Positions 5,071 through 63,898 of a stretch of 64,000 nt of DNA are shown here, in pieces. The position numbers and the translations under genes are program-made. The stretch is taken from positions 974-64,973 of the forward strand of contig JBBQGV010000015.1 of the NCBI GenBank assembly GCA_038323375.1, read 5' to 3'. Under the pieces are notes generated by a model that saw nothing but the letters and a program-made list of their open reading frames with translations, ran no database searches and was not told where the DNA came from. Source of the stretch: Chitinophagales bacterium (GTDB taxonomy: Bacteria > Bacteroidota > Bacteroidia > Chitinophagales > Saprospiraceae). Every line of letters starts with the position of its first letter. Positions within the stretch are counted from its first letter, which is position 1.

Positions 5071-5080
5071 TTTTTTGATT

Positions 5081-5686: not shown

Positions 5687-5827
5687 ACAATTAGGGAGAC
5701 GAACGAGTGGTGGGGATATTTTAAAAATTGTGGTTATTTTTTAAAATCGGCTTTGGAAAAAACAGGCGCCATCCTGAAATCTATTCCAGAATAGCTCATG
5801 TAAAATTTACAACCAAATAATATCCAA

Positions 5828-6415: not shown

Positions 6416-6448
6416 GATTGCACGCGGGCCATCATCTACACAATCCCA

Positions 6449-6658
6449 CTACCAGTTATCTGATTGTTGAAGCGTCATGTGCCCGCAGCAAGCGTTTATC
6501 ATACTCCCATTTGGCCCAACAGGCAGCGCGGTTATTTCATAGCACCTTGGAGGATTCGTAACGTTTTGCTGATCCCATTTGCATAAAATTAGTTTGGCCT
6601 GTGCTGAATAGGTCATGCTTAGCAAAGCGAGCACAAGGAAAAAAGTAGTCCGTTTCAT
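6449..6658 (-). CDS. signal-peptide-bearing 69-aa ORF; possibly the 5' part of the interrupted T9SS cargo gene
   Basis: Signal peptide MKRTTFFLVLALLSMTYSAQA. In frame with 5828-6415. Confidence 0.4.
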   Translation of the reverse strand: MKRTTFFLVLALLSMTYSAQAKLILCKWDQQNVTNPPRCYEITALPVGPNGSMINACCGHMTLQQSDNW

Positions 6659-6732
6659 AACAACAATTTCAAGGTTAATAAAATACTATTGATGTTTTGA
6701 ATTAAACATCAATCAAAATGATCCTCAACGTA

Positions 6733-6822
6733 TTGTGTCTGAAAATAGTGTTTGAAGTAAGCGTGTGCAAGTTGCAAAAAATGAGGTTGTCAAGACCTTC
6801 TTCATTTTTACAACAACATTAA
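6733..6822. repeat. about 90-bp direct repeat, copy 1 (partner at 7629-7721)
   Basis: TTGTGTYTGAAAATAGTGTTTGAAGTAARCGTGTGCAAGTTGCAAAAAA...TTCATTTTTACAAMAACATTAA is present twice in the same orientation, flanking the AT-rich gene 6895-7413. Confidence 0.7.
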
Positions 6823-6894
6823 GTTTGAAAAACGAAACGGCGTTGCTTCCGATTTGGAAACAACACCGTTCTATATCTATTATTGTTATCCTGA

Positions 6895-7413
6895 TTAATT
6901 ATTACCCCCTGGGGGAGGCGAAGGCTGGCAATCAAATTCTCGAACGGTCATACTACATGGGCATCCTCCATTGCATTGAAACGTGACAGAGCCGTTATGA
7001 ATAGTGCCACTGGGTGTACAGGAGCATTCACCATTACAAGATATGGTATAACATTTATCAGGAGCATCTCTGAAAAAAGAAACCTCTTTTACAAAAATAA
7101 CTTTACTGCTTTTACCTTCATCATTTGAAATTTCGATAAACATAGCTGTTTGATTATCAGCTTCAAGGAAGTTGAAATTAATAATATGGAAATCAGCCCT
7201 TGATTTAAACAATTGAATTACTGAAGGTTTAATAGCCTCTTTCAACGCCCCGATTGACTCCGAAATCCAAACACCATTTGGTGAAATAATTTCTTGAATA
7301 TTTTGTTCTTGCATTTCTTCTATTTTAGGATAGATATCTTTAGAACATGCAAATGCTAATATGCTAATAAAAATTAGCGTAATTTTGGAAAACAAGTTCT
7401 TAAAGTTCATCAC
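6895..7413 (-). CDS. lipoprotein with a Cys-rich C-terminus, function unknown
   Basis: 172-aa ORF. Lipobox ILAFAC|S. The C-terminal 50 aa carry 8 Cys (CYTISCNGECSCTPS...QCNGGCPCS...DC). Visibly AT-rich compared with its neighbours. Confidence 0.5.
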   Translation of the reverse strand: MMNFKNLFSKITLIFISILAFACSKDIYPKIEEMQEQNIQEIISPNGVWISESIGALKEAIKPSVIQLFKSRADFHIINFNFLEADNQTAMFIEISNDEGKSSKVIFVKEVSFFRDAPDKCYTISCNGECSCTPSGTIHNGSVTFQCNGGCPCSMTVREFDCQPSPPPGGNN

Positions 7414-7628
7414 TTTTTTTTAAAAAATTATCCTTTTTTTATTTAAGATGGCTTCAGGAATCCCCATCACTGATATTGGTAGTTATTAAAAAATGTCTCT
7501 AAGAACTTATACTGATATAGTCAATTGTCTAAATGCATCCTAATTAATAAATAGACATTTACTAGCTAATTAACAGCATACTGCACTAATGTGGTAGATG
7601 CTCCTTGTTGCAAACGCCCCCGCAATGT

Positions 7629-50987: not shown

Positions 50988-51881
50988 ATGATACCGAACT
51001 TCAATTTTCAAAAAAAGAGACTGACGCTGCCTGATCAAACGACCGTGGCTTACTTAGATACCGGGCACGATGCGGCTAAGCCTACCCTCGTCATGGTGCA
51101 TGGCTTAGGCAACAATGCTTCTGTTTGGCTCAGGCTGATGGCGCAAATTCAGGGTCAGTACCGCTGTATTGCCTTAGATTTGCCTGCTCATGGAGATTCG
51201 CAAGCCTGCACCCAAGCGTGTGGAATTAATTATTTTTCAGCAACCGTTGAGGGTCTTATTGAAGGCTTACAATTAGGCCAGGTGATGCTCATGGGCCACT
51301 CTATGGGTGGGTTGGTTTCGATCAAAACTATTTTGCGAAAGCCCACAGTCGTCAAGCAGTGCATTTTACTTGCCCCTGCTGGTTTTGAAACCTTTACGCT
51401 CAAGGAAAAAGCCTGGTTAAAAGCCATTTATGCGGTATGGATGCTCAAAAAGATGAGTGCAGCACGTATGGAACAGCAAACCAGAGAAAGTTTTTTCCGA
51501 TTCCCGCCTGATTTTGAGTTTGCCGTACAGGAAATTATCGCCATTCGCGAATCTCCGGAGGCATTCGAGGCGTACTGCGAAACGCTGTCTTTGTGCATGA
51601 ACAGCCTGCTTAATGAGTCGGTTTTTGATACCCTTTCCACCATTAGTCTGCCGTGCACTGTATTTTTTGGCATAGAAGACCTGACCATTCCCAACAAAGT
51701 CCTTCATCCGAACCTCACAGCCATCGAAGTAGCCGAGCAGGGGACGCGGAAAATTCCCAATGCCACCCTGCACTTGATTCCTGAATGCGGCCATACCCTC
51801 CAATGGGAGGCAGCTGATCAGATTGCTGATTTTTTACTAAATTTGGTTAGCTACTCTTCTTCCGCAGGTTCCGGACGCTGA
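50988..51881 (+). CDS. alpha/beta-fold hydrolase
   Basis: 297-aa ORF. HGLGNN oxyanion region, GHSMGG nucleophile elbow and a C-terminal CGH. Confidence 0.85.
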   Translation: MIPNFNFQKKRLTLPDQTTVAYLDTGHDAAKPTLVMVHGLGNNASVWLRLMAQIQGQYRCIALDLPAHGDSQACTQACGINYFSATVEGLIEGLQLGQVMLMGHSMGGLVSIKTILRKPTVVKQCILLAPAGFETFTLKEKAWLKAIYAVWMLKKMSAARMEQQTRESFFRFPPDFEFAVQEIIAIRESPEAFEAYCETLSLCMNSLLNESVFDTLSTISLPCTVFFGIEDLTIPNKVLHPNLTAIEVAEQGTRKIPNATLHLIPECGHTLQWEAADQIADFLLNLVSYSSSAGSGR

Positions 51882-53052
51882 CCTCTTCCCAAGAACGGCA
51901 ACCGGCTAATCCCAGGGTCAGGTCAATGTCTGCCAACAAATTCGTGATGACCTCGCGAACGCCTGCTTCCCCGCCTACCGCCAGCGCTAAGGCATAAGGC
52001 CGTGCCACCAGTACCGCCTTTGCGCCTAAGGCCATCGCTTTGAATACGTCTGCGCCACGTCGGATGCCGCTGTCGAACAAGACGGTCAGTTCATCCCCGA
52101 CGGCATTGGCAATTTCCGGCAATACCACCAATGAGCCTACCGCACCATCTACCTGCCTTCCGCCATGATTGGAAACTACGATGCCATCCACGCCATAATC
52201 CAACGCTTTTCGGGCATCGTCTATGTGCTGAATGCCTTTGAGTATGATGGGCATCCGGGTGCAATTCCGGATAACGGACAAGTCGTTCCAAGTTAGGCCC
52301 GGCCCGGTAAATACCTTCGTAAAATGGCGGATGGCTTTGAATTTATTTTGCTCAGGGTCGCCGCCTACGGCCTCCCGGAATACCGGATCGCCGAAGTAAT
52401 TGGCCAAGCCGTGGCCGTGCAAAAATGGCAGGTATCCCAGCTGAATATCACGTTCGCGCCAAGCCAAAACCGGGGTATCAAGAGTCACCACTAAGGCCGA
52501 ATACCCGGCCTCTTCTGCCCTCCGAATGACACTCCTTGTAAAATCGTGGTCGCGCCCCCAATACAACTGAAACCAATGTGGGTTTTCTGCGTTTTCCCGG
52601 GCGATGTCTTCCATAGGCATAGATGACACGTTGCTAACCACTTGTGGCACCTTCATGGAACGCGCAGCACGGGCAACCGCCAATTCAGCTTCCGGGTGTG
52701 CAATGGACAATACACCTACCGGCCCGAGTAATAAGGGAGAAGGCAAGCGCTGTCCAAACAGTGTAACGCCCATATCTGCATTAGAAATATCCACCAACAT
52801 ACGTGGCACAATTTGCCAATCATCCAGCGCCTCCTGATTGTTGCGCATAGTTGTTTCCCCGCCAGCGCCGCCTGCAATGTAGGCAAAGGCTTCGGGTGTC
52901 ATTTTTTCCGAGGCTTCTTGAAGTAAGTCTTCATAAGAAACCGGAAATTTATTTTTCCGGTTGAACAGGCCATTCAGGTAAATGTGCATCTGTCGCTCTA
53001 CACCAAAGGAAGGGCGCTCCATTTGTAAGGTATCACCGGTTCTATTTTTCAT
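51847..53052 (-). CDS. FMN-dependent alpha-hydroxy-acid oxidase/dehydrogenase (lactate oxidase/LldD-like)
   Basis: 401-aa ORF with VVSNHGGRQVDG, ILKGI and DSGIRRGADVFKA motifs. Confidence 0.85.
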   Translation of the reverse strand: MKNRTGDTLQMERPSFGVERQMHIYLNGLFNRKNKFPVSYEDLLQEASEKMTPEAFAYIAGGAGGETTMRNNQEALDDWQIVPRMLVDISNADMGVTLFGQRLPSPLLLGPVGVLSIAHPEAELAVARAARSMKVPQVVSNVSSMPMEDIARENAENPHWFQLYWGRDHDFTRSVIRRAEEAGYSALVVTLDTPVLAWRERDIQLGYLPFLHGHGLANYFGDPVFREAVGGDPEQNKFKAIRHFTKVFTGPGLTWNDLSVIRNCTRMPIILKGIQHIDDARKALDYGVDGIVVSNHGGRQVDGAVGSLVVLPEIANAVGDELTVLFDSGIRRGADVFKAMALGAKAVLVARPYALALAVGGEAGVREVITNLLADIDLTLGLAGCRSWEEVSVRNLRKKSS

Positions 53053-53054
53053 AA

Positions 53055-54347
53055 TTAAAATAGTTTATTTAAATAAAAAACTGCCTGAATAAAATTAATT
53101 TCTAATTGATCAAAATGGTATCGTTTGCCTCCTGTTTGCTCGTTTTGCAGCGTGAGGCCGGGGAAATAGCGAACATTGGTGCGCAGTAAAAAGGATTGGA
53201 GGCGATTGGGGCGGATGTCCCATCCAAAAATATACCCCAATTTCCACTGGTCTTCTTTAGCCTGAAAAGCGGTGCCAGGGTTTAGTGCATCCCCGCCAAT
53301 GGCCTCCAACCGTTCCCAGCCCGGGCTTATTCCAATAAAAGGAACAAACCCCTTGTAATCAAACAAAGATTTGCAAAGGTCTAATGACAAGGCTTTGCGG
53401 CGAAACTCCAGCGTACTGCCATAAGCGCTAATTTCACTGTTGATGCTCCGGTAAGACAGGTTGAGGTGCGCGTCTAATTTGTGGTGATAATAGCCTGCGC
53501 CCCATTCTATAAAAACATTCCCCCCCCTGTGTCGGCCCATATAAGGTGCTACATCGGTTGATTCCTTCAGGAAAAAAGTAGAAGAAACGCCCACTGCTGC
53601 TGAAAAGGTATTGAGTTTACCTGCTTTCCCGAGGCGATCCTCCAGCTCTTTGGTACGGCCATTGAGCAAGTCTTCTTCTGCCGAAACCGTCGTGTCCAGT
53701 AAATAACGGTATCCTATTCTGAATTGAAGTGGGGGCAAACGGAGTGTCGAGGCAGCAACCCGATCGAAATAATAAGTAGCCTTGTTGTTGTACATCCACG
53801 TGGCTGACAATTCAAAATAGTGCTTTTTATTGGCAATGGTGCTTACCCCGGCATGAATTGGGTAGCTCACTTTATTGTAATTGGAGCCGTCGTCGCTTTT
53901 GTCGTCTGTTTTACCGAGGTATCTAAAATTCAACGAATTGAAAGACATGCCCACAAAAGGGCTAATTTTTGCGGTATAAGGCGTTTTCCACAAAAAATAT
54001 CGGAAACCGGTTTCTGTGCCGGTAGCATAATCCGTTGTTCGTGTGCCTGATTGCAAATTGAGGATGGGAATGTTGATAAAAAAATCCACTTTCCCCCAAA
54101 AATGCATACCGGAAATATTCAGGTGCGTCGCCGAACGCGGTGCAAAAGAAAGTTTGTCAGGCTCGCTGCCTGCCACACCCGACACCTTCGTTTCCCATGC
54201 GGGGGCATATCCGGTATAGATCCCGAAGCCACTCTGGGCAAAACGGTGTTGGGTTTTAGGAGAAATAACCTCCGAGTTTTCTTGTCCAATGATTATGGTA
54301 TTGGACACAAACAGCAGGCAGCAGAGCGAGACAAATAGACGCATCAT
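53055..54347 (-). CDS. outer-membrane beta-barrel protein, function unknown
   Basis: 430-aa ORF with a signal peptide, alternating aromatic/hydrophilic strands and a terminal ...YLNKLF. It starts 8 nt after the KS-like gene and ends 2 nt before the oxidase gene. Confidence 0.55.
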   Translation of the reverse strand: MMRLFVSLCCLLFVSNTIIIGQENSEVISPKTQHRFAQSGFGIYTGYAPAWETKVSGVAGSEPDKLSFAPRSATHLNISGMHFWGKVDFFINIPILNLQSGTRTTDYATGTETGFRYFLWKTPYTAKISPFVGMSFNSLNFRYLGKTDDKSDDGSNYNKVSYPIHAGVSTIANKKHYFELSATWMYNNKATYYFDRVAASTLRLPPLQFRIGYRYLLDTTVSAEEDLLNGRTKELEDRLGKAGKLNTFSAAVGVSSTFFLKESTDVAPYMGRHRGGNVFIEWGAGYYHHKLDAHLNLSYRSINSEISAYGSTLEFRRKALSLDLCKSLFDYKGFVPFIGISPGWERLEAIGGDALNPGTAFQAKEDQWKLGYIFGWDIRPNRLQSFLLRTNVRYFPGLTLQNEQTGGKRYHFDQLEINFIQAVFYLNKLF

Positions 54348-54355
54348 GATTGAAT

Positions 54356-55621
54356 TTAATTATATCGACTTAAAATAATGGAAGTTGTATTTCCACCAGC
54401 CTGGATGGAGTTGACCATCACCTTTTCCAAAGGTACGTGTTCCAATGTTTCTCCCGGAATGGTCACCCTGGCATTGGTGGGGTTATTAAAATAACTACCA
54501 GCCCAGCCCGTTCCAAGCACTTCTTCGTTTTGCATCATCAGCGCAGCCGCTACCAGCGAAGTTTGGCCCGAAGCCCCAAAAGTTTCCCCAATAAATGGTT
54601 TTATTGTGGTGTAGTAGAGGTCTTCATTTTTCCAGATTTCATCAATTGCCTTTCCTTCGTATTCGTTGTACTGCCAAGGCAGGCAAGAAGCCCCCACGAC
54701 ACAGTCGATATCCGAAGGCGCAAGCCCTGACAATTTTAAGCTTTCCTCCATTACGTGTTTGAAGTCGGCCTCATTTTTTTCAAAGAAGAAATTGTCGTGA
54801 GCGCCGTCAAAGCCGGTATTGTAATTGAGTACTTCTGCATAAATATCGGCACCTCTTTCCAGTGCATGGTCTAATTTTTCCAGAACCACAAAGGCCGCAG
54901 CTTCGCCAATAACGGTTTTTCGCTCGTTTTTTGCATAGTCGAGGGCACGTTTGAGGGCCGTTTCCGCAGTTGTATCGGCATTCTCCGAAGGGCAGTCAAG
55001 CAAATATCCGCTTTCGTTATAAAAAATCAAATGAATGTCCCTTATTTCATCAAAACCACCACAAATAATGATGTCGGCATCGTCATTTTTCAGGAGGTCG
55101 AAGCCGTAGCAAACGCTGTCTTCCCCCATCAGCAAAGAGCTTGAACCCCTGAATTTATAGTACCGCGTGGTGTCGCCCAAGACTGTATTCGACACCGTTT
55201 TTGTGAAGTCGAAAGGACTGGCTTTGCGCGGACCTTCGCGAAACAGCTTTTCCAGATAGGCTTCAACGGCTGCATTGGCCGCCATTGACGTATTCAGAAT
55301 CAGGCCAATCCGATCTGGTGAAAGCTGGTTGCCTTCCAGTTTGGCACTTTTGACTGCCGTTTGGCACCCCAACATGGCGAGTTGGGAGTACCGGAGTGGA
55401 AATGGCGCTTTCAAATCGGCAAAATATTCTTTGATGTTGATTTCCGGACACGGATAAAAATATGTCTGATCCAGCCCTGATTCGTTCCAGGTGTTTTTGA
55501 TAACGACCCCACTTTGTCCGGACTTGAGGCTTTGGTAATAAGTTTCAGCGCCAATGCCGATGCTGGAGACCATGCCTACTCCTGTGATAACGATGCGTTC
55601 ATTTTGTGGTATAGATTTCAT
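54356..55621 (-). CDS. ketosynthase-like protein lacking catalytic residues (chain-length-factor-like)
   Basis: The 421-aa thiolase-fold ORF is colinear with the KS at 62693-63898. The active-site TACASG position reads SLLMGED, and the two His motifs (HGTAT, GHALGAAG) are replaced (GASCLPW, GETFGASG). Confidence 0.75.
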   Translation of the reverse strand: MKSIPQNERIVITGVGMVSSIGIGAETYYQSLKSGQSGVVIKNTWNESGLDQTYFYPCPEINIKEYFADLKAPFPLRYSQLAMLGCQTAVKSAKLEGNQLSPDRIGLILNTSMAANAAVEAYLEKLFREGPRKASPFDFTKTVSNTVLGDTTRYYKFRGSSSLLMGEDSVCYGFDLLKNDDADIIICGGFDEIRDIHLIFYNESGYLLDCPSENADTTAETALKRALDYAKNERKTVIGEAAAFVVLEKLDHALERGADIYAEVLNYNTGFDGAHDNFFFEKNEADFKHVMEESLKLSGLAPSDIDCVVGASCLPWQYNEYEGKAIDEIWKNEDLYYTTIKPFIGETFGASGQTSLVAAALMMQNEEVLGTGWAGSYFNNPTNARVTIPGETLEHVPLEKVMVNSIQAGGNTTSIILSRYN

Positions 55622-55626
55622 AATAT

Positions 55627-56112
55627 TTAGCTAGGTTTGGTAAGGTGAACGGTAATATTTCCTTTAGCGACTACTTCGTTTTGTGCATCCAGTACTTTTC
55701 CGTCATATACCGAAAAGTCCATGAATTTTTGCTTAATGAATACAACTATTGTAAGCTCTGAATTCGGAAAAACCGGTTTAACAAAGGTGGTTTTATCAAT
55801 TTTAATGGCCCGGCCCATCATTTTTTTATCCGATATATTTTCTCCCGATGCAGTACCGATCTGGTTTTCGATCATTTCCATCCGGCCAAAAAGACCGCAT
55901 GTTTGGAACATCATTTCTACCAGAATAACCCCCGGCAGCATGGGATAACCCGGAAAATGGCCCTTAAAAAAAGGCATGTCGGCGTTTACCTGTGTTTTGG
56001 CGGTGAGCGAGACACCGGGTTCGTAGCTTACAATTTCGTCCACCAGCAACATGGGTGGGCGGTGTGGCAATAAAGTTGCCGGTTTGGGAAAAGTCAAGGT
56101 ATTCGTACTCAT
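55627..56112 (-). CDS. FabZ/FabA-like 3-hydroxyacyl-ACP dehydratase (hot-dog fold)
   Basis: 161-aa ORF with HFPGYPMLPGVILVEMMFQ. Confidence 0.8.
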   Translation of the reverse strand: MSTNTLTFPKPATLLPHRPPMLLVDEIVSYEPGVSLTAKTQVNADMPFFKGHFPGYPMLPGVILVEMMFQTCGLFGRMEMIENQIGTASGENISDKKMMGRAIKIDKTTFVKPVFPNSELTIVVFIKQKFMDFSVYDGKVLDAQNEVVAKGNITVHLTKPS

Positions 56113-56885
56113 ATTGTTTGTAATATTTTTGTAGATACTGAAATTTGATCTAATATAGAACGAGACAAATCTGCTTCTGAAAAATGTCGAACATCCATTA
56201 AAAATTGATTTTTACTGGCTACCCAGCATAAATAATCCCTGTCTATTTGTACCGATTTAAGTATGTATTCCTTGCGGCTGGTCAAGGCTGCGTCCATATC
56301 CCGAAGCCCTTTGCCCGAGCATTTCACCTGTGCTTCTAATGCTGTCCAGTCTTCTATGTTGATGGAATCTGCGTGCGTAGTCAGCCCTTTGACGGCTTGT
56401 CCGAAGCGCAAAAAACTGCTTCGGTCTTTTTTGCACTGTACGTCAATGCCTACAATGCCTTCGTAGTTGATGGCACAAGCAATCAAATCCCGGGAATGAG
56501 ACAGGTTAAAGTCAAAATCCCCTACCCGGATAAATGGCCGTCCAAGTGCATCGTATTGCATCGGAAAACTGGCAGGCGATGCATCGGGATATACTTCGCG
56601 GAGGCCTTCGTACACCAACAATTTACTCAGGATCGATTTTAGCCGGTCAGCATGTTTTAAGTAGCGACTCCACCGATTCCGGATGGCTTCCGGAAACAAA
56701 GTCGCGTATGCCAGTAACAGATCCTGAAAAGAATTACTTTTTTCATAATAAGCATAACATAATAAATTCGCCAAAGGTAACTTGCCGTTGCTCTTCAATG
56801 AGTGCCGTACAATTGGCAAGAGACCGGTGCTTGTCGCGAAATACCTGAACGAAGTCTTTCTGTACAATTTCTGAATATTCTGCAA
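56109..56885 (-). CDS. Sfp-type 4'-phosphopantetheinyl transferase
   Basis: 258-aa ORF. FNLSHSRDL, GIDVQ, WTALEAQVKCSGKG. It overlaps the dehydratase start by 4 nt. Confidence 0.75.
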   Translation of the reverse strand: MQNIQKLYRKTSFRYFATSTGLLPIVRHSLKSNGKLPLANLLCYAYYEKSNSFQDLLLAYATLFPEAIRNRWSRYLKHADRLKSILSKLLVYEGLREVYPDASPASFPMQYDALGRPFIRVGDFDFNLSHSRDLIACAINYEGIVGIDVQCKKDRSSFLRFGQAVKGLTTHADSINIEDWTALEAQVKCSGKGLRDMDAALTSRKEYILKSVQIDRDYLCWVASKNQFLMDVRHFSEADLSRSILDQISVSTKILQTI

Positions 56886-56915
56886 GTTTGTAGCTATAAG
56901 TATCCATTGATCTAT

Positions 56916-58127
56916 CTATTTATGAATTTCCAAAACGCCTATATTCAGTAGGTCTCTAATAAAAATTGATTCAAAGCCTTCTTCTTCCATCTCTTGTTTG
57001 AGCTTTATTGACATTTTAAAAAGGCTTTTAAAGCAAGGCTCTGTCAGTTGAAAACACTGGTATGTGCGCTTGTTCAATAAAAAACAGTCATTTTCAATCA
57101 TAAATAAGCCAAAATTGGTTTTATTAAACTTCAATTGGGTATTAGCTGGTAAATCTGCATAATTAGCGGTGCTAATGTCTCGGGTAGTACTCACTTCCGG
57201 CGGTAAATATTTGTGCAGATAAAGCCATGTTTCCCATTGATCGTAGTATTGTATCAGATATTTTTCCAGCTCACTGTATAACTTGCGGGTTACTTCCGGG
57301 ATGTATTCTTTGGGAGCTCCGGCCCACTCTTTGGGGTCTATTTTAGGCAAAAGCAAGACTTTTGGAGGTTTTCTTTCCTCATCCGGATAATAAGAAATCA
57401 CGGGAATAATCGGGCGTTTGTTCATCCAGGAAATGGCTGCAATCCCTTTTCGGGAATTGATTTCCTGGCCAAAAAATGGAATTCTTAAATGAAACTGTTC
57501 TGACTTGTGGAAAATACCGCCCCCACCAGTATTGCCGTCAATGTAGGCAATAATGGATTTGCCTTCATAAAGGCATTTTGAAAGCGTCATGGCAATATTA
57601 GGCGACTCTGCGTTCAAAAGATCAAAAAACGCAGTTACTCCAAATGCTTTGTGTATCTCGGCCACCTTTTTCCGGATGCTGTCTCCCTGACGATGGTAGG
57701 TGTTTTCATCTACAATCAAAACAAAATCAAGACCTTTACTTGCCACAATGCCGATAACCGACCGATAAGACCCCAGGTGGTAGGTACAAATAACCGCCGG
57801 GAAATTTTCGGGTGCTAAAGCAGCTTCTGCACCGACTACGTCCAAGCGGTCAATTAATTCCGGCATCCCGGTTTCTTCATTGAGCAGGGCACGGCCGTAA
57901 AGCAGCTTCAAATAAATATCTTCGTATGCTGACGCTGGTATGTGGGGCAAAAATCGTTCCAGATTTGCCGTCAGAAATGTAAAATCCTTTAGTTGTAGCT
58001 GATCGAATTTCCGCTGTTCCCGCAATTGGATTTCTTGCCTCAACCCTTTGTAGCTCTCCACGTGTGGAAGGACGTTCGGGCTTTTATTTGAACCAGATTG
58101 AAATACAGGTATCGTTTCGACTGTCAT
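56916..58127 (-). CDS. LpxL/HtrB-type (lipid A biosynthesis-like) acyltransferase with an extra C-terminal domain of about 90 aa
   Basis: 403-aa ORF. YHLGSY (Hx4-type motif), a FFGQEINSRKGIAAISWMNKRPIIPV block and QWETWLYLHKY. The tail (FGLFMIENDCFLLNKRTYQCFQLTEP...FIRDLLNIGVLE) resembles a PqqD-like peptide-binding fold. Judged by eye. Confidence 0.55.
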   Translation of the reverse strand: MTVETIPVFQSGSNKSPNVLPHVESYKGLRQEIQLREQRKFDQLQLKDFTFLTANLERFLPHIPASAYEDIYLKLLYGRALLNEETGMPELIDRLDVVGAEAALAPENFPAVICTYHLGSYRSVIGIVASKGLDFVLIVDENTYHRQGDSIRKKVAEIHKAFGVTAFFDLLNAESPNIAMTLSKCLYEGKSIIAYIDGNTGGGGIFHKSEQFHLRIPFFGQEINSRKGIAAISWMNKRPIIPVISYYPDEERKPPKVLLLPKIDPKEWAGAPKEYIPEVTRKLYSELEKYLIQYYDQWETWLYLHKYLPPEVSTTRDISTANYADLPANTQLKFNKTNFGLFMIENDCFLLNKRTYQCFQLTEPCFKSLFKMSIKLKQEMEEEGFESIFIRDLLNIGVLEIHK

Positions 58128-58141
58128 ACGTATTGCTATTT

Positions 58142-59443
58142 TTAATTTAAAACTTCCGTAGCCAACTGCTCTCTTCCTACCTCCTCGCAGTTAAAATTAT
58201 TGAGTGTAAAAAGATTAATGATGTTCAATATCAGCTCAACAGAGGTTTGCATAGTACGATCCTGCATATCCATATCCGGGTTCACCTCAACCAGGTCAAT
58301 GCCAATGATTCGGCGGTCCGTCAGCACCAATTGCAGCAGTTGAATCAGCTCCGAAAGATCCAGGCCATTGGCAACGGGGGTAGCGGTAGCAGGCGCAACA
58401 ACAGGATCTAGTACATCAATGTCAATGGTCAAATAGACTTGTGCGTCCATTGGAATGAAAGACAAGTCGAGTTCATCATGGATGGATTTTTTCAGGTCGC
58501 TGCACCAGAAAACATGCTGTTTCGAATTATGGGGCCGCCCCATGAGGTTAAATATCCCCCTGATTCCCATCTGATAAATGCCTTTTACTTTCGAAATTTC
58601 GAGGCACCGGCTGGCAAAATTGCCGTGATGGTGTACTTTTTCAGCGTGATTAAGACTGTCATACTTAGAGGTATAGGTATCCGTATGGGCGTCCATGTGT
58701 ACGATGTAAATGTCATCAAACACCGCCGATGCAGCTTTTACAATCGGATAGGTTACAGAGTGGTCGCCTCCAAGAAAAAACGGAATATTCCCTTGTTGGA
58801 AAATCTGGAGCGCTGTTTTTTCTATTTTCCGGTAGATATAGGATTTAGATTCGTGGATGCTGACAAATAAATTGCCCAGATCTTTGATTAAATCCTTTTG
58901 CAAAAGTTCGAAAAAACAAGAGTTACTTGAGTCAATGCCTACCGCTTCAAGGCTGTAATTCCCAGCGCTTGCTGCATCTAAGTGCAACTTGTATTCGTTG
59001 GTGTACTCCCGGAGTTTTTCCGGAAAATGCGCACAGCCCACTGATTTGGGATTGCCCCCGCCATAAGGAATTCCGACAAAGCATAAATTGGCAAAATGCG
59101 GGTTTGTTTCGTCGTTCAATCCAAAAAGCGTATGTTTTAGTCTTGTCAGTATAACGAGCTGGTCTTCGAGAATGTCATTCTGAAATACGAGCCCGCGACT
59201 TACAAAAGAAGACAATGCTTGTTGTAGATCACCTGTGGGGTACTGTGGGAAAGCGGCCATAAGACCTTCAAACGTTTTGGGGATTTCCAGAAACCGCAAA
59301 ATGCTCATTGCTGTTTCTTTTACCTGAAATACCTTCCCCGACAGGGTGTTGTACAATTTATGTGCTGCATCTTCTCCTTTTTCGCGCTCTATGAGCAAGT
59401 AAGGCGAAATGATGTAGTTGGTAATTACTTTATTGTTTTCCAT
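58142..59443 (-). CDS. arginase/agmatinase-family ureohydrolase fused to an N-terminal PqqD/RRE-like domain (candidate peptide arginase)
   Basis: 433-aa ORF. C-terminal GGDHSVTYP, HMDAHTD, TIDIDVLDP and DLVEVNP Mn-binding motifs. The N-terminal 90 aa (LYNTLSGKVFQVKETAMSILRFLEIPKTFEGLM...LSSFVSRGLV) are RRE-like. Confidence 0.8.
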   Translation of the reverse strand: MENNKVITNYIISPYLLIEREKGEDAAHKLYNTLSGKVFQVKETAMSILRFLEIPKTFEGLMAAFPQYPTGDLQQALSSFVSRGLVFQNDILEDQLVILTRLKHTLFGLNDETNPHFANLCFVGIPYGGGNPKSVGCAHFPEKLREYTNEYKLHLDAASAGNYSLEAVGIDSSNSCFFELLQKDLIKDLGNLFVSIHESKSYIYRKIEKTALQIFQQGNIPFFLGGDHSVTYPIVKAASAVFDDIYIVHMDAHTDTYTSKYDSLNHAEKVHHHGNFASRCLEISKVKGIYQMGIRGIFNLMGRPHNSKQHVFWCSDLKKSIHDELDLSFIPMDAQVYLTIDIDVLDPVVAPATATPVANGLDLSELIQLLQLVLTDRRIIGIDLVEVNPDMDMQDRTMQTSVELILNIINLFTLNNFNCEEVGREQLATEVLN

Positions 59444-60731
59444 CGCGTCTATTTCTTATCAGGTTTTTAATACTATTCCGCACAATGCCTGAATTATGTT
59501 GATAACGCTTGTAAAAAATAAATGAGAATATGGTCGTAGCAAGTGCTGTTTTTCCCATTGATTCAATGGCACAGACAGAAAAATCGAGCTGATAAATGTT
59601 GTAAAAAACTTGTTTCCATGCATAAAATGCTTGTCCGATAAATTTGATAACGACATAAGCAATATATCCCCAAAATACGTAGCTGCAAATAGAATAAATT
59701 GCCAAAAAAGGGTTCTTTACATTCACTAACTGCCGCGTTCTTTCAGAAACCTGGAATGGCAGGCTGGGAAAAATGCGCTTTAGGAACAAAGTCCACCAAG
59801 CATCTGACTGCAACCGCAGGTTCGGAAGCTTAAATAAATCGCTATAAATCCAGTAGCCGTCAAACCGGAAGAAGGGGTTAAAATTAATGAATATGGTTAC
59901 TGTATTGATAACGATCAGACTCCTGAGTATACTGATGGTTTCCATATCGTAGGAGTTTTTAACCCAGTAAATCAACCCAAGATTAATCAATAACTGGAAA
60001 AATATTCCTCCAAAATTCACAATAATGCGTTTGAGGCGGCTGAGTTTCCAGGTTTCAGTTACATCCGTATATAATACTGGAAAAATAAAATAGAAGCCAA
60101 AACCGATACTTTTGGGTGGCGCTTTGAACAAGTATGAGGAGGCCGCATGCCCCAGTTCATGGATAAAAAGAATGAAAATTGCTACCGGGTAATAGATAAA
60201 AATATGCCCCAAATTTTTTAGGCACTCGGTACCCGAACTGGCAAATGTCCCGCCGGCTGCCGCTGCATCGTTGTATTGCGAAAATTGCTGGATATAATAA
60301 TAATTCAAACCCGCACCCGCCAACAGAAGCGTAAAAAAAGGTATCGGATAAAAAAAGTATTTCAGTATTTCAAGGAGCCATTTAAGCTGCTCAAACCGAA
60401 AAACATCCCAATGGCCAGTAAACCCGGACAGCATTCTGTCGGTTTTGTTTTTTTCCAGGCTTTCATCGTGTATGACCTCACCTGCTTCATTAAATATTTT
60501 AAGAGGTTTAATTTTTTCTTCGATAATTTGGGCAACGGTTTCTTCTGTAAATTCATATTGACCACGAGACCAGTTGTTTAGGCTAACCGTAATTTCCGGT
60601 TTTGTCTTTTTCTCTGTCAGTTGATCTATGATGATACGCAACAATTCTCCTATGTAATAATTGGTGCCATTGATCTGCAACAGGTACTGTTTATTGTCGT
60701 TACCGGTTTCTACTTCTTGTATGGTGTACAT
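59430..60731 (-). CDS. polytopic membrane zinc metalloprotease (M50/site-2-protease-like, HELGH)
   Basis: 433-aa ORF with multiple TM helices and HELGHAASSY inside a helix. Its soluble N-terminal domain of about 110 aa could bind peptide. Confidence 0.65.
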   Translation of the reverse strand: MYTIQEVETGNDNKQYLLQINGTNYYIGELLRIIIDQLTEKKTKPEITVSLNNWSRGQYEFTEETVAQIIEEKIKPLKIFNEAGEVIHDESLEKNKTDRMLSGFTGHWDVFRFEQLKWLLEILKYFFYPIPFFTLLLAGAGLNYYYIQQFSQYNDAAAAGGTFASSGTECLKNLGHIFIYYPVAIFILFIHELGHAASSYLFKAPPKSIGFGFYFIFPVLYTDVTETWKLSRLKRIIVNFGGIFFQLLINLGLIYWVKNSYDMETISILRSLIVINTVTIFINFNPFFRFDGYWIYSDLFKLPNLRLQSDAWWTLFLKRIFPSLPFQVSERTRQLVNVKNPFLAIYSICSYVFWGYIAYVVIKFIGQAFYAWKQVFYNIYQLDFSVCAIESMGKTALATTIFSFIFYKRYQHNSGIVRNSIKNLIRNRRDGKQ

Positions 60732-60790: not shown

Positions 60791-60837
60791 ACAAAAAGGG
60801 GCCGGGATATTGAATATGATAACCCCATCCCAGCCCC
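60791..60837 (-). terminator. Rho-independent-type hairpin between the last precursor gene and the protease gene (possible attenuator)
   Basis: Minus-strand RNA reads GGGGCUGGGAU-N18-AUCCCGGCCCC followed by UUUUU. Confidence 0.6.
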
Positions 60838-60939
60838 TTATACGCAATCAAACTAAGTGACTACTAAATTGCAGTTGCAAGAACTACTACAAGGCGTTTT
60901 TCAGTTCTACATGCTGCATGATCGTAAAAAAATCAGGTA

Positions 60940-61080
60940 CTATCCAGCTGCGGGTGGCGCGGCGGGTGTTTTCACTGTGTTGCCACTGCAGCGTGCGGTA
61001 TCCACAGCCGCTACCGTCATTTCAAAACGGCCTTCCAATTCAACTACGGACAATGCATCTTTGATTTCAAAATTGTTCAT
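60940..61080 (-). CDS. candidate RiPP precursor peptide, 46 aa (variant core)
   Basis: Manual translation: MNNFEIKDALSVVELEGRFEMTVAAVDTARCSGNTVKTPAAPPAAG. It shares the conserved 31-aa N-terminal region with the three genes at 61752-62308. Confidence 0.6.
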   Translation of the reverse strand: MNNFEIKDALSVVELEGRFEMTVAAVDTARCSGNTVKTPAAPPAAG

Positions 61081-61161
61081 AATAAGTAAATTTTGGTAAT
61101 TAGAAAATTAGAAAATAAAAATCTCAGTCATTAGCAGTAAACAAAAGTCGGTCATACTAAG

Positions 61162-61323
61162 GGTCGCTGAAATAATAACTGTTCACTTTTCCAGGAGGTC
61201 TTTTGCTCCTACTCTGCGTTGGAGAACCACCTCCCTTAGCTATGGCTAAGGTCGGGAACCCCCGCCTCGGTTAGCCACAAAATGCCTTGCCTGGCAAAAG
61301 CGACACTTGTTAATTCAGCGCCC
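61162..61323. mobile_element. MITE-B copy 1 (162 bp), TIR GGTCGCTGAAATAATAAC / GGGCGCTGAATTAACAAG, TSD CTAAG
   Basis: CTAAG occurs at 61157-61161 and 61324-61328. It is near-identical in length and sequence to copy 2. Confidence 0.75.
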
Positions 61324-61473
61324 CTAAGGAATCAAACAGGATAAAGATGTATTTACCAGATCCATTCTATTGATGTGTATCATTTATAAGTTAGATACCA
61401 TTCGTGAGTTGCCAATCGGTTACAAGTATCTTTATTCCTGCTTTTTTCAGCAATTACTGGCTGTACTTTTCAA

Positions 61474-61574
61474 TTAGTTAGCCAAGGTCCTGGACTCATC
61501 GGAAACCGATTTGTTGATCTTGCTGTCGTTGCAACGTGCAGTATCCACGGCAGCTACGGTCAGTTCAAAACGAT
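61474..61574 (-). pseudogene. 5'-truncated precursor-peptide gene
   Basis: It encodes only ...RFELTVAAVDTARCNDSKINKSVSDESRTLAN. The N-terminal half and spacer are replaced by the junction ...AAAACGAT|ATAATTACGCTTAG next to MITE-B copy 2. Confidence 0.6.
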
Positions 61575-61588
61575 ATAATTACGCTTAG

Positions 61589-61750
61589 GGTCACTGAAAT
61601 AATAACTGTCCACTTTTCCAGGAGACCTTTTGCGCCTACCCTTCATTGAAGAACCGCCTCCCTTAGCTTTGGCAAAGGTCGTGAACCCCCGCCTTGATTA
61701 GCCACAAAATGCCTTGCCTGGCAAAAGCGACACTTATTAATTCAGCGCCC
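61589..61750. mobile_element. MITE-B copy 2 (162 bp), TSD CTTAG
   Basis: CTTAG occurs at 61584-61588 and 61751-61755. The right-hand TSD overlaps the stop codon of the 61752-61898 precursor gene. Confidence 0.75.
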
Positions 61751-61751
61751 C

Positions 61752-61898
61752 TTAGTTGGCCTGAGCAGGTTCAGAAGAGGCCTTCACATCTGCTTTGTTG
61801 TCGTTGCAACGTGCAGTGTCTACAGCGGCTACGGTCAGTTCAAAACGATTTTCGAGTTCTACCACTGACAGGGCATCTTTAGTGTCAAAATTGCTCAT
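61752..61898 (-). CDS. candidate RiPP precursor peptide, 48 aa
   Basis: Manual translation: MSNFDTKDALSVVELENRFELTVAAVDTARCNDNKADVKASSEPAQAN. Confidence 0.65.
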   Translation of the reverse strand: MSNFDTKDALSVVELENRFELTVAAVDTARCNDNKADVKASSEPAQAN

Positions 61899-61956
61899 GA
61901 TAAAAAGATTGATTGATTAAAAAATAGAATTAAGAGACGGCTTAAAATAATTACGC

Positions 61957-62103
61957 TCAGTTGGCCTGAGCAGGCTCAGAAGAGACCTTCACATCTGCTT
62001 TGTTGTCGCTGCACCGTGCAGTGTCCACAGCGGCTACGGTCAGTTCAAAACGATTTTCGAGTTCTACCACTGACAGGGCATCCTTAGTGTCAAAATTGCT
62101 CAT
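61957..62103 (-). CDS. candidate RiPP precursor peptide, 48 aa
   Basis: Manual translation: MSNFDTKDALSVVELENRFELTVAAVDTARCSDNKADVKVSSEPAQAN. Confidence 0.65.
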   Translation of the reverse strand: MSNFDTKDALSVVELENRFELTVAAVDTARCSDNKADVKVSSEPAQAN

Positions 62104-62161
62104 GATAAAAAGATTGATTGGTTAAAAAATAGAATTAAGAAATGGCTCAAAATGATTACGC

Positions 62162-62308
62162 TTAGTTGGCTTGAGCAGGCTCAGAAGAAGCCTTCACATC
62201 TGCTTTGTTGCCATCGCAGCGCGCAGTATCAACAGCGGCCACGGTAAGTTCAAAACGCTCTTCGAGTTCTACTGAGGACAGCGCATCTTTGATTTGAAAA
62301 GTTGACAT
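62162..62308 (-). CDS. candidate RiPP precursor peptide, 48 aa
   Basis: Manual translation: MSTFQIKDALSSVELEERFELTVAAVDTARCDGNKADVKASSEPAQAN. Confidence 0.65.
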   Translation of the reverse strand: MSTFQIKDALSSVELEERFELTVAAVDTARCDGNKADVKASSEPAQAN

Positions 62309-62387: not shown

Positions 62388-62669
62388 TTAGTCTTCTGCT
62401 TCCACCAGCAGGTTGCGCTGAATCATCGCGCTCAGTGTCTCTACGTTCTGGAAGGATTCTTCGTTAAATTCCGTAGGAATGATTCCGAATTCTTCGCCGA
62501 GGCGGGTAGAGATTTCAAGGACAGCGAGGGAATCCTGAATAATTCCGGGATCTTCATCAGTCCCGAAAAACGGCGCATCGTTTTTGATGTCTGCTGCCGT
62601 AATGTCTTCCAATTCCAATACATCAATAATGCATTGTTTTACTTTTTCCTGAATTGCATTGAGTTCCAT
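62388..62669 (-). CDS. acyl carrier protein
   Basis: 93-aa acidic ORF with a DSL phosphopantetheine-attachment motif (IIQDSLAVLEI). Confidence 0.85.
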   Translation of the reverse strand: MELNAIQEKVKQCIIDVLELEDITAADIKNDAPFFGTDEDPGIIQDSLAVLEISTRLGEEFGIIPTEFNEESFQNVETLSAMIQRNLLVEAED

Positions 62670-62692: not shown

Positions 62693-63898
62693 TTAATTAA
62701 AATTTCTGATTGCTACCGAGGCCATATTCCCTGAAAACCCGAAGGAGTTGGACAGTGCCAGGTTAATTTTATAGTCAATGGCTTTTCCTTCTACCAACCG
62801 AATGTTATCAGGAGTGACAATGGACTCTTTCACGTTAATGGAAGGGGGGACGAAGTTTTTGTAAACCCCCAAAGTTGTAGCGACAAACTCTACACTGCCC
62901 GCTGCCCCCAGCGCATGACCAATCAGTGATTTGGTAGAGCTGACATACACCGGGTGCCCATCTACCAATTGTTCGATGGCCCTGATCTCCATCTTGTCGT
63001 TCGCCAGCGTAGCGGTACCGTGTGCATTGATATAATCTACCTGACTGGGCGTAGCACCGGACATTTTAAGTGCATTGAACATGGCCTGCTTGGCAAAAAT
63101 GCCATCCGGGTGAGGCGCTGTGGCGTGATAAGCTTCGTTGACAATCGAATATCCTGAAACTTCTGCCAGAATCGGCGCATTCCTTTTTTGAGCCGACTCC
63201 AGGCTTTCCATTACTACGTAGGCAGCAGCATCGCCAAGGTTCAAGCCATCCCGGCCTTTATCGAAGGGCTGGCAAGCACCTTTCGACAGGGCAAACAGCG
63301 AGTTAAATCCGCTGTAAGTCAGGTAAGTAAATATATCAACCCCACCTGCAATCATACAATCTACCCGGTTACTCCGGATCAGATCGAAGGCTCTTCCGAT
63401 CGAGTTGGTGCCCGAAGCACAAGCTGTGGAGATCGTAGATAATGGGCCGCGTATGCCAAAATGGGCTGCGATTCGGGAAGTGATATTGGGCGTGATGTGC
63501 AACAACAACGCATAATCCCGCTCTTCGCCTTTAATTTTGTTTTTCACCCAATCCATAAAGGGATAACTTCCTCCAACCGACGTGCCAAGACAAAGCCCCA
63601 CGCGTCTGGGATCGGTGCTACTCAAGTCTAAATTTGCCCTTTCAAGCGCCTCACCGATCGCCCGCACCGACAATTCGCCAAGGATCGTAACGTCTTTTTC
63701 ACGGGCCGCTTCGTAAATACCCTGGTCAATGGTACATCCCTGGCGGCTTCTGAAGAACTCGTCAGACAAGTCAAAGCGTTGAGTAGAAATGTCTTTGAGG
63801 CCAGATTTGCCTTCACGCAGGTTTTGTTCAAATTCATCCAGATTATTGCCGATGGAGCAAATGACGCCCAAACCGGTCACAACTACTTTAGATGCCAT
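62693..63898 (-). CDS. beta-ketoacyl-ACP synthase (FabF/KAS II-like), catalytically complete
   Basis: 401-aa ORF with the Cys-His-His triad context STACASGTNS, NAHGTATLAND and GHALGAAG. Confidence 0.9.
   Translation of the reverse strand: MASKVVVTGLGVICSIGNNLDEFEQNLREGKSGLKDISTQRFDLSDEFFRSRQGCTIDQGIYEAAREKDVTILGELSVRAIGEALERANLDLSSTDPRRVGLCLGTSVGGSYPFMDWVKNKIKGEERDYALLLHITPNITSRIAAHFGIRGPLSTISTACASGTNSIGRAFDLIRSNRVDCMIAGGVDIFTYLTYSGFNSLFALSKGACQPFDKGRDGLNLGDAAAYVVMESLESAQKRNAPILAEVSGYSIVNEAYHATAPHPDGIFAKQAMFNALKMSGATPSQVDYINAHGTATLANDKMEIRAIEQLVDGHPVYVSSTKSLIGHALGAAGSVEFVATTLGVYKNFVPPSINVKESIVTPDNIRLVEGKAIDYKINLALSNSFGFSGNMASVAIRNFN

Follow-up and report, generated by a model that had tools for sequence, protein, structure and literature searches.

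The stretch analyzed here (the window; 64,000 nucleotides of contig JBBQGV010000015.1, positions 974 to 64,973, from the Chitinophagales bacterium assembly GCA_038323375.1) carries on its minus strand, between 60940 and 62308, four intact genes for peptides of 46-48 amino acids (aa) and one 5'-truncated copy. The genes from 63898 to 51847 are all encoded on the minus strand, and among them are those for a membrane protease, an arginase-family enzyme, a candidate acyltransferase and lipid-building enzymes. This peptide family and the genes that accompany it are the subject of this work. Peptide gene 1 (62308..62162, 48 aa, MSTFQIKDALSSVELEERFELTVAAVDTARCDGNKADVKASSEPAQAN) is identical to public protein P0002 and gene 2 (62103..61957, 48 aa, ...ARCSDNKADVKVSSEPAQAN) to public protein P0001; gene 3 (61898..61752) encodes 48 aa (...ARCNDNKADVKASSEPAQAN) and gene 5 (61080..60940) encodes 46 aa (MNNFEIKDALSVVELEGRFEMTVAAVDTARCSGNTVKTPAAPPAAG). 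The remaining copy (61575..61474) is a remnant without start codon that reads YRFELTVAAVDTARCNDSKINKSVSDESRTLAN up to its stop. An example of a precursor sequence is MSNFDTKDALSVVELENRFELTVAAVDTARCNDNKADVKASSEPAQAN, and ALSVVELEERFELT is a leader peptide. The three upstream genes repeat in tandem with a unit of 205 nt. The initial annotation had reported the same four intact genes and one truncated gene, and its translations were reproduced exactly. It also described them as absent from the open reading frame (ORF) track, which was true of the track it used, but public gene callers call all four in sibling contigs, and copies 1 and 2 are on record at NCBI as 'hypothetical protein SH848_03900/03895 [Saprospiraceae bacterium]'.

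Within the 31-codon N-region, the copies differ pairwise at 12-14 third codon positions versus 3-6 first or second positions, and the pairwise Nei-Gojobori dN/dS is 0.06-0.21, which bears out the earlier view that differences between copies are enriched at synonymous sites. When the same DNA was read in all six frames, the proposed frame alone combined a low dN/dS (0.11) with zero stops. One antisense frame had a ratio of 0.22 but contains a stop; we infer that such a value is to be expected where wobble positions are shared with the sense frame. Ratios in the remaining four frames were 1.7-3.7, with 4-14 stops. The peptide genes are therefore real, coding and under purifying selection. It could still be argued that the small ORFs are non-functional and stay open by chance, either as a tandem DNA repeat or as ORFs of a regulatory leader or attenuator, since three copies form a 205-nt repeat, one copy is truncated, elements resembling miniature inverted-repeat transposable elements (MITEs) lie in the array, and no curated family model recognizes the peptides. 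Against this stand the low dN/dS, the third-position excess and the single open frame, together with the 91 unique intact homologues described below, which come from several families and combine 26 conserved residues with variable tails, and whose genes, in the recovered loci of the HExxH type, point the same way as and adjoin those for an acyl carrier protein (ACP) and a protease. We consider this explanation effectively refuted by the comparative data.

An exhaustive search with a hidden Markov model profile of the four copies against 1.84 billion cluster representatives (E <= 1e-3) returned 25 matches, about 21 of which, 37-76 aa long, contain the same block; a word-indexed homology search with a single peptide found the window's own two proteins only. 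A homology search with the conserved region had been suggested in the initial annotation, and homologous small ORFs are indeed present in related Bacteroidota clusters. By scanning one genome per species as well as metagenomes, and by looking up contigs, we recovered about 20 loci, each with 2-7 tandem peptide genes, giving 91 unique peptides in total. The carriers are Saprospiraceae, Lewinella/Neolewinella, Spirosoma validum, S. terrae, Arcicella, Pseudarcicella hirudinis, an uncultured Cytophagales genome and Pedobacter, and they include the cultured strains S. validum BT704, S. terrae KCTC 52035, P. hirudinis and Pedobacter sp. PAMC26386. Three very large profile matches (P0004, P0018 and P0025) were discarded as repeat artefacts unrelated to the peptide family. 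P0004 (2073 aa) matches the peptide profile 29 times and P0018 (916 aa) 13 times via a repeated 'VELEIRFHSVTVAVDM' unit; both look like translated repetitive DNA, which calls for caution in automated mining with this motif.

A variable N-terminal stretch precedes a conserved block of 26 residues, for which the 91 peptides give the consensus AL(S/T)(I/V)VELE(E/D)RFE(T/M/L)T(V/A)AA.D..(R/K)C..N. In the ELE.RFE motif, the E-L-E, the R and the final E are invariant, and F is found in 88 of the 91 peptides. The position that we call the junction is occupied by R in 66 peptides and by K in 17, the adjoining C is present in 79 and the Asn in 69. The Arg-Cys pair had been described as invariant, which is correct for the window (five of five copies) but not for the family. 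It had also been taken as the boundary between conserved and variable parts. However, the conserved block runs three residues past the Cys, to the Asn, and the information content of the alignment drops only beyond that residue; Arg-Cys is therefore probably inside the modified region rather than at a cleavage boundary. The tails that follow are variable (5-21 aa); A, V, N, S, D and T abound in them, and hydrophobic residues are favored at alternate positions. No Pfam or NCBIfam (June 2026) model matches the peptides above noise, and this includes the NCBIfam matches to encapsulin or DkgB (E 0.007-0.1), which we dismissed as noise. No GG motif occurs among the 91 peptides. A double-glycine leader of the C39 type was considered and set aside, as the spacing of conserved residues fits the canonical motif poorly and the window cluster has no C39 peptidase (only the variant locus L025 has one).

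Taken with their surroundings, the tandem mini-genes are very probably precursors of RiPPs (ribosomally synthesized peptides that undergo post-translational modification). The leader/core reading advanced in the initial annotation gains support from a Bacteroidota-wide peptide family that is embedded in biosynthetic clusters with RiPP machinery, namely an HExxH protease, radical SAM enzymes with a C39 peptidase, or LanB and LanC. For the ELExRFE segment, the initial annotation had proposed a helix that binds a RiPP recognition element (RRE), whereas leader peptides usually bind RREs as a beta-strand.

The gene that follows the array (59430..60731, minus strand) encodes a polytopic membrane metalloprotease of 433 aa with an HExxH motif (HELGH) and a Peptidase_M50 match (1.5e-5). 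Its relatives in NCBIfam are daptide_HExxH (1.2e-21; 77.3 bits, cutoff 300) and YydH/LiaK (4.8e-14; 52.6 bits, cutoff 225), and by these scores it appears to belong to a related but distinct clade. In most loci, the protease gene is the next one downstream of the peptide genes, and its product is a candidate for the role of leader peptidase. The first ~75 residues of the protease show kinship to the N-domain of the arginase-family enzyme (hhalign probability 92%, E 6.7e-7).

This arginase-family enzyme (58142..59443, minus strand) matches PF00491 over residues 119-408 (Arginase, 2.3e-52) and has an extra N-terminal RRE-like domain of ~100-118 residues. All six His/Asp ligands of the binuclear Mn site (H228, D251, H253, D255, D341 and D343) are invariant in 56 homologues, the GGDHS, DAHTD and DIDVLD motifs are present, and the active site is intact. 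In the AlphaFold2 (AF2) model (pLDDT 91.8), the catalytic domain is agmatinase-like (Foldseek to E. coli agmatinase, 7lba, 1.5e-22, TM 0.82 on target), and the N-domain is predicted with high confidence as four strands (residues 9-42) followed by three helices (43-82). The fusion architecture is found in 286 cluster representatives at E <= 1e-20, mostly of 390-440 aa, and the named members are all Bacteroidota. The N-domain had no match in direct Pfam or PDB sequence searches. An OspR-type assignment was rejected: the enzyme belongs to PF00491, and OspR (8BRP) is absent among the 60 listed of 71 sequence matches and among the top 50 fold matches. OspR-type peptide arginases belong to pfam12640 and have different motifs and an inserted dimerisation domain (PMC12703449, PMC10028609).

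Downstream of the arginase gene lies an ORF for a 403-aa protein (56916..58127, minus strand) that was labeled 'unknown' and that we identify, from homologues, AF2 and Foldseek, as an LpxL/PatA-type (LPLAT) acyltransferase with a C-terminal RRE-like domain, and as a candidate for acylating the peptide. The protein itself had no match in direct Pfam or PDB sequence searches. Nonetheless, 36 of its 50 aligned homologues match PF03279, the lipid A lauroyl/myristoyl acyltransferase family, and its AF2 model (mean pLDDT 90.4) retrieves PatA (5e-12) and LpxM (5e-11), both with Foldseek probability 1.0; the protein is thus an LPLAT-fold acyltransferase. H117 (HLGSYR) is invariant in the homologue alignment, and so are the DGN.G (D197-G-N199) and R.G blocks. 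The catalytic His motif of such enzymes is classically HX4(D/E), and here it is HX4R. E174 is near-invariant and D197 invariant, and, as judged from conservation, either could supply the acid for H117. In PatA, the acid is supplied by a distant Glu. LpxL/LpxM-type enzymes use acyl-ACP donors.

In the AF2 model, the last ~80 residues of the 403-aa protein fold into four strands and three helices as a unit of their own. This C-domain matches the leader complex of TbiB1, a RiPP recognition element (5v1v_A; Foldseek probability 0.99, E 0.043, TM 0.56 on target). The PqqD-like winged-helix fold of RREs consists of three strands and three helices. The order of secondary structure elements is identical in the models of the acyltransferase C-domain and the arginase N-domain, and the two are related by profile (hhalign 87%, E 3.9e-6, 60 columns). 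Single-sequence hhalign of the putative RRE domains was uninformative, and profile-versus-profile comparison alone gave a signal. The earlier idea that the arginase N-domain reads the peptide is supported by the predicted four-strand/three-helix unit, by its profile kinship to the acyltransferase C-domain and by the 5v1v_A match of the latter.

The peptides are also accompanied by genes for making an acyl chain. An ACP of 93 aa (62388..62669, minus strand; PP-binding 2.3e-4; NF006617 3.5e-8, below cutoff) is encoded directly upstream of the array, and an ACP gene is found immediately upstream of the peptide genes in most loci, with L019/L020 and L024/L025 as exceptions. Before it lies the gene for a beta-ketoacyl-ACP synthase (KS), KS1 (62693..63898, minus strand; Pfam ketoacyl-synt N 1.7e-38 and C 7.5e-33), which keeps its active-site Cys (TACASG), is FabF-like in NCBIfam (7.7e-100, below the curated cutoff) and co-occurs with the peptides in most loci. 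Farther downstream on the same strand are a 4'-phosphopantetheinyl transferase (PPTase; 56109..56774; AASDHPPT_N 9.3e-6, HetI/AcpT-like), a FabZ/FabA-fold dehydratase (DH; 55627..56112; FabA 5.9e-20; FabZ 2.6e-25, below cutoff) with precomputed ApeP-like and ApeI-like matches, and the ketosynthase homologue KS2 (54356..55621). In KS2, NTSMAANA stands at the site of the catalytic Cys, and it is therefore a chain-length-factor (CLF)-like partner. In sibling contigs, a 497-aa AMP-dependent ligase (AMP-binding 1.5e-45) is encoded between the 403-aa gene and the PPTase gene, and a full AMP-ligase gene is also present in most related loci. The sibling contigs further reveal that the cluster extends upstream of the window with a FabG/FlxB-like ketoreductase (KR), two paralogous proteins of 210 and 232 aa and a 725-aa SusC-like protein. 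The paralogues give faint TPR signals, and the SusC-like protein has a CarboxypepD_reg domain and a weak Plug match; these three proteins are encoded in the 4010-7545 region of L001, upstream of the window end. No enoyl reductase was detected among the annotated conserved cluster genes. At the other end, the window encodes a conserved 430-aa protein (53055..54347, minus strand) with weak outer-membrane beta-barrel matches (OMP_b-brl 0.017, PorG 0.007) and no informative match in direct Pfam or PDB sequence searches; it is kept in L009, L011, L012 and L021. Together, the 725-aa, 210-/232-aa and 430-aa partners hint at an envelope destination or an export route.

According to tblastn, the genes that accompany the peptides are those for ACP, KS1, KS2, KR, DH, AMP-ligase, PPTase, the 403-aa protein, the HExxH protease, the arginase and the 725-aa protein. 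This set mapped alongside the peptides in every sufficiently long locus, despite gene order being reshuffled between Saprospiraceae and Spirosomataceae, and it was found together with them in Saprospiraceae, Lewinella, Spirosoma, Arcicella and Pseudarcicella. Where loci of the HExxH type were recovered, their peptide genes run in the same direction as the ACP and protease genes and adjoin them. The constant partners of the peptides are lipid genes and an acyltransferase encoded by an unannotated ORF, which goes beyond what the initial annotation saw.

It is conceivable that two independent systems are merely neighbors here, with the peptides, protease and arginase leading to an unlipidated RiPP, and the ACP/KS/CLF/KR/DH/ligase/LPLAT set making an aryl-polyene- or flexirubin-like envelope lipid whose anchor would be acylated by the LPLAT enzyme. 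Aryl-polyene and flexirubin clusters do share with this one a KS and its Cys-less partner, a FabG/FlxB-like KR, an ApeI/ApeP-like DH, an ACP, an AMP-ligase, an LPLAT enzyme and envelope proteins. The likeness of the DH to ApeI/ApeP and of the KR to FlxB (flexirubin), the KS/CLF-like pair typical of polyene systems, the failure to find an enoyl reductase among the annotated conserved genes, the conserved outer-membrane-like proteins and the classical role of PF03279 enzymes (PatA, LpxM) in acylating lipid A or glycolipids would all be accounted for. To our knowledge, however, no description of aryl-polyene and flexirubin clusters includes tandem precursor peptides, an HExxH protease, an arginase or RRE-like domains. 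Moreover, both gene sets stay joined through the reshuffling of gene order and through a swap to radical SAM/C39 tailoring, the ACP gene usually adjoins the peptide genes, and the acyltransferase C-domain matches a leader-bound RRE and is profile kin of the arginase N-domain. In Pedobacter, the acyltransferase homologue is encoded beside the arginase, the protease and LanB, and no KS, KR or DH genes were seen within 10 kb of the arginase gene. We therefore regard two separate systems as unlikely.

The identity of the junction residue bears on the role of the arginase. Among the HExxH-type clusters, an arginase gene is present in 11 loci (the window, L009, L011, L012, L013, L014, L015, L016, L017, L021 and L022), and in all 11 every peptide has Arg at the junction; the same is true of the RC peptides of the Pedobacter locus, L029. 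In the three loci that lack it, the 725-aa gene directly follows the protease gene, and the peptides have VC (L018), KF (L019) or KC (L032, six of six). This association is the strongest evidence that the peptide Arg may be the arginase substrate and that a side-chain amine would matter to the pathway. As for the converse rule, that R at the junction implies an arginase, it had to be rejected, as will be seen below for L024/L025.

One alternative is that the arginase is a small-molecule amidinohydrolase, which might for instance, as happens in some polyketide pathways, take the amidino group off a guanidino-acyl starter or product, and that the peptide Arg serves recognition or cleavage only. 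This would agree with its nearest relatives, which are agmatinase, guanidinobutyrase, guanidinopropionase and proclavaminate amidinohydrolase, with its not being of the pfam12640 (OspR) type, and with the AMP-ligase of the conserved set, which would be able to load an unusual acid. It would not explain why arginase presence tracks Arg versus Lys or Val at one peptide position in 14 of 14 HExxH-type loci, why its N-domain has RRE-like topology and profile kinship to domains on the other two maturases, or why a lanthipeptide cluster that has RC peptides but lacks polyketide synthase (PKS) genes contains a homologue. In addition, KgrD shows that PF00491 enzymes can act on peptides (PMC12703449). 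A role restricted to small molecules thus seems improbable to us, and we consider the enzyme a good candidate for a peptide arginase that would convert Arg30 (the R of RC) to ornithine (Orn), a conversion that we judge likely from the comparison of loci.

Variant clusters combine the same leader with other chemistries. L024 and L025 have peptides with this leader and two-Cys tails (…ALRCGDNNSCTIVAQAPSAE), and the same ACP, KS, KR, DH, ligase, PPTase and acyltransferase set, but two radical SAM enzymes and a C39-peptidase ABC exporter replace the protease and the arginase. The best NCBIfam matches of these radical SAM enzymes are radical SAM/SPASM RiPP-maturase models, below cutoff, and one of them has a Pfam SPASM domain. 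L025 (4149-12706) and also L024 additionally encode a 308-aa protein without assigned family and a LuxR-type response regulator. L029, a cluster of the class I lanthipeptide type from Pedobacter sp. PAMC26386 (CP060294.1, 4040822-4062045), has LanB, a LanC-like gene and homologues of the arginase fusion, the acyltransferase and the HExxH protease. It encodes six identical 52-aa peptides with ELEARLE...RC (…GLDILELEARLETVQIGDAASGSIRCDSESALEN) and a TonB-dependent receptor, and no KS, KR or DH genes were seen within 10 kb on either side of the arginase gene. In view of these radical SAM and LanB/LanC variants, the leader and the RRE-bearing enzymes appear, from gene content, to behave as a portable module. 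In the Lys-Cys variant L032 (1972-7130), a 542-aa Lant_dehydr_N protein, a thioesterase, a DUF2141 protein and an AMP-ligase are encoded upstream of six peptide genes, a gene content that suggests yet another tailoring combination.

Our preferred reading, which we hold to be reasonably likely, is a lipo-RiPP pathway of Bacteroidota with conversion of Arg to Orn, ACP-dependent acylation and leader removal. The conserved 26-residue block would serve as the recognition and modification region of the precursor, and its ELE.RFE part would be bound by the RRE-like domains of the arginase (N-terminal), the acyltransferase (C-terminal) and probably the HExxH protease (N-terminal). The Mn-dependent PF00491 arginase would hydrolyze Arg30 to ornithine. 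A set resembling type II PKS or fatty acid synthase (FAS) systems, consisting of the AMP-ligase (starter), KS, the Cys-less CLF-like KS, KR, DH and PPTase, would build an acyl chain on the neighboring ACP. The LpxL/PatA-type enzyme would then move the chain from the ACP to the peptide, the likeliest acceptor being the side-chain amine of Orn (or Lys), possibly helped by the neighboring Cys; its RRE-like domain suggests action on the leader-bearing precursor. To acylation of the peptide by this LPLAT enzyme, taken alone, we assign an even chance. Finally, the HExxH membrane protease would remove the leader and the lipopeptide would go to the cell envelope, with the SusC-like 725-aa protein and the proteins that weakly match outer-membrane barrels as conserved partners.

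More tentatively, and with somewhat less than even confidence, the system may represent a new RiPP class, in which an RRE-fused PF00491 arginase unmasks an amine and an RRE-carrying LPLAT enzyme attaches a polyene-like, ACP-built chain directly to the ribosomal peptide. Bacteroidota would then have a ribosomal route to envelope-anchored polyketide-peptide conjugates, and the recognition module (ELE.R.E leader with RRE-fused protease, arginase and acyltransferase) would be a portable one that could also serve lanthipeptide and radical SAM pathways.

Several points weigh against this pathway. The chemistry of each step is inferred, and so are the sites of acylation and cleavage and the route of export. 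The RRE assignment is built on one Foldseek match (E 0.043), topology and pairwise hhalign. The acyltransferase C-domain profile had zero PDB matches and only noise in Pfam, with no PqqD, and the RRE call for this domain is therefore structural and provisional; its comparison with the protease N-terminal region was not significant (hhalign 1.8%). A fold search with the full arginase model was swamped by ureohydrolases and left the N-domain unmatched, and the nearest structural and sequence relatives of the arginase act on small molecules such as agmatine. The Arg/arginase association is a count over 14 loci without phylogenetic correction, of which L012 and L021 nearly duplicate each other. 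At the junction of the L018 peptides there is neither R nor K, which rules out a side-chain amine as universal acyl acceptor, and L024/L025 keep RC with no arginase within +-10 kb. LPLAT enzymes normally acylate lipids or sugars and occur in aryl-polyene clusters, so the 403-aa enzyme might act on a lipid. Lastly, with its ligase deleted, one peptide gene truncated and two MITE-like elements in the array, this copy of the pathway may be impaired or partly decayed.

The lesions of the window locus can be described in some detail. It is without 1.43 kb that are present in five sibling contigs from other metagenomes, comparison with which identifies a remnant of 48 codons (56764..56907, minus strand) as what is left of the AMP-dependent ligase. 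The deletion (junction 56764-56780) lies between imperfect direct repeats of 17 nt and leaves the PPTase gene with TTG in place of its ATG start; it may be a strain variant or an assembly artefact or collapse. Two copies of a 172-nt element lie in the array, copy a (61584..61755, TAAG flanks) exactly at the stop codon of peptide gene 3 and copy b at 61157..61328 (TTAG flanks). They are 90% identical, have terminal inverted repeats (GGGGCGCTGAATTAA... / ...TTATTATTTCAGYGACCC) and fold as one long hairpin (-75 kcal/mol, z -5.6). The element looks like a MITE that invaded the peptide array; it has no Rfam match, and no further copy occurs in the 64 kb. The truncated peptide gene lost its 5' part by a deletion beside the inserted repeat, not by the insertion itself. 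In the relative L009, the array has five intact peptide genes.

Between the last peptide gene and the protease gene lies a GC-rich hairpin followed by a U-run (UUUUU) that resembles a terminator or attenuator (60791..60839, minus strand). The 111-nt stretch that contains it folds with -39.7 kcal/mol (z -3.6), and none of 200 shuffles folded as well. This is consistent with an attenuator that raises the precursor-to-enzyme ratio. As a conserved feature, a terminator after the array was rejected, since clear examples were limited to the window, L013 and L014, 3 of the 13 arrays examined. Rfam gave nothing meaningful on the array region (sok, 18.9 bits versus a gathering score of 59).

Among known systems, the selidamides follow the same logic as the one proposed here. 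In these, a pathway arginase turns a peptide Arg into Orn, the side-chain amine is fatty-acylated, and Lys variants need no arginase (PMC13647313; PMC12703449). The window family shares this pattern of R with arginase and K without it with the selidamides (kamptornamide, phaeornamide, nostolysamides), but the parts differ. Selidamide arginases are of the pfam12640 (OspR) type, in contrast to PF00491 with an added N-domain. The selidamide acyltransferase belongs to the GCN5-related N-acetyltransferases (GNATs), none of which was detected in the scanned proteins of the window cluster, where the sole candidate is PF03279/LPLAT. Selidamide precursors are of the NHLP/Nif11 type with Gly-Gly sites, whereas the window family has an unrelated ELEERFE leader and no leader-model match. 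Characterized selidamide GNATs use endogenous fatty acids of the host (PMC13647313), while the window cluster encodes its own ACP, KS, KR and DH. Selidamides are also cyanobacterial or proteobacterial, and the window family is from Bacteroidota.

Lipoavitide, goadvionin and lipolanthine clusters resemble the window cluster in encoding their own FAS/PKS-type enzymes together with a peptide acyltransferase, and GdvG of the goadvionin pathway needs an ACP-bound acyl donor (bioRxiv 10.1101/2023.10.25.564083). However, their acyltransferases are GNAT-superfamily enzymes that acylate the N-terminus after leader removal, unlike our LPLAT-fold candidate with its RRE-like domain. They are actinobacterial and carry (amino)vinyl-cysteine or avionin rings, whereas the window cluster is without lanthionine or aminovinyl-cysteine machinery. 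A parallel to the arginase is KgrD of the enteropeptin pathway, a Mn-dependent PF00491 arginase whose substrate, a peptide Arg adjoining a Cys, becomes Orn (PMC12703449). Compared by published description, the two are alike in that the window Arg also adjoins a near-invariant Cys. KgrD needs a thiomorpholine made by a radical SAM enzyme between the Cys and the Arg (PMC12703449), and the window cluster has no radical SAM enzyme; the window arginase has an extra N-terminal RRE-like domain. For the protease, the models of both the daptide (MpaP-type) and epipeptide (YydH/LiaK) HExxH proteases match the window enzyme, which is likewise placed right after the precursor genes, but the aminotransferase, methyltransferase and YydG epimerase genes of those pathways are absent from the window cluster.

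In reviews, the lipidating enzymes of characterized RiPP lipopeptides (selidamides, lipolanthines, goadvionins, lipoavitides and aphotorhaptins) are GNATs, and the producers are mostly actinobacteria, cyanobacteria and proteobacteria (PMC13647313; bioRxiv 10.1101/2023.10.25.564083). We found no description of this cluster in the full-text literature on RiPPs with ACP/KS, with LpxL/LPLAT, or with Bacteroidota or Pedobacter and arginase; for the ELEERFE motif, a literature search returned only an unrelated lentivirus paper, and the published peptide-arginase paper makes no mention of Bacteroidota or ACP genes. Lipopeptides of mixed RiPP/fatty-acid or RiPP/polyketide origin with an Orn or Lys handle are thus already known, and what is new is the precursor family, the PF00491 fusion, the LPLAT acyltransferase with its RRE-like domain and the phylum.

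Genetically encodable alternatives to drugs made by nonribosomal peptide synthetases, such as daptomycin and polymyxin, are sought in the form of ribosomal lipopeptides. If the proposal is correct, it would add a new precursor and leader family and a second, unrelated acyltransferase fold for peptide lipidation, taking ACP-bound donors. It would also add a PF00491 arginase that appears leader-guided, unlike KgrD with its pre-formed thiomorpholine, and a recognition module reused in at least three RiPP chemistries. Functions are hereby proposed for proteins widely annotated as 'hypothetical', 'agmatinase' or 'lauroyl acyltransferase', and the presence of the family in cultured strains makes the predictions directly testable.

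The last gene of the minus-strand series (51847..53052) encodes an FMN-dependent alpha-hydroxy-acid dehydrogenase/oxidase of the LldD/MftD type (FMN_dh 9.6e-126; MftD-like 8.8e-68, below cutoff), a possible cluster member that may act in starter-unit chemistry or in peptide oxidation. Such a dehydrogenase, which resembles the mycofactocin enzyme MftD, recurs inside three clusters (window 51847-53052, L019 6476-7636 and L020 6679-7842).

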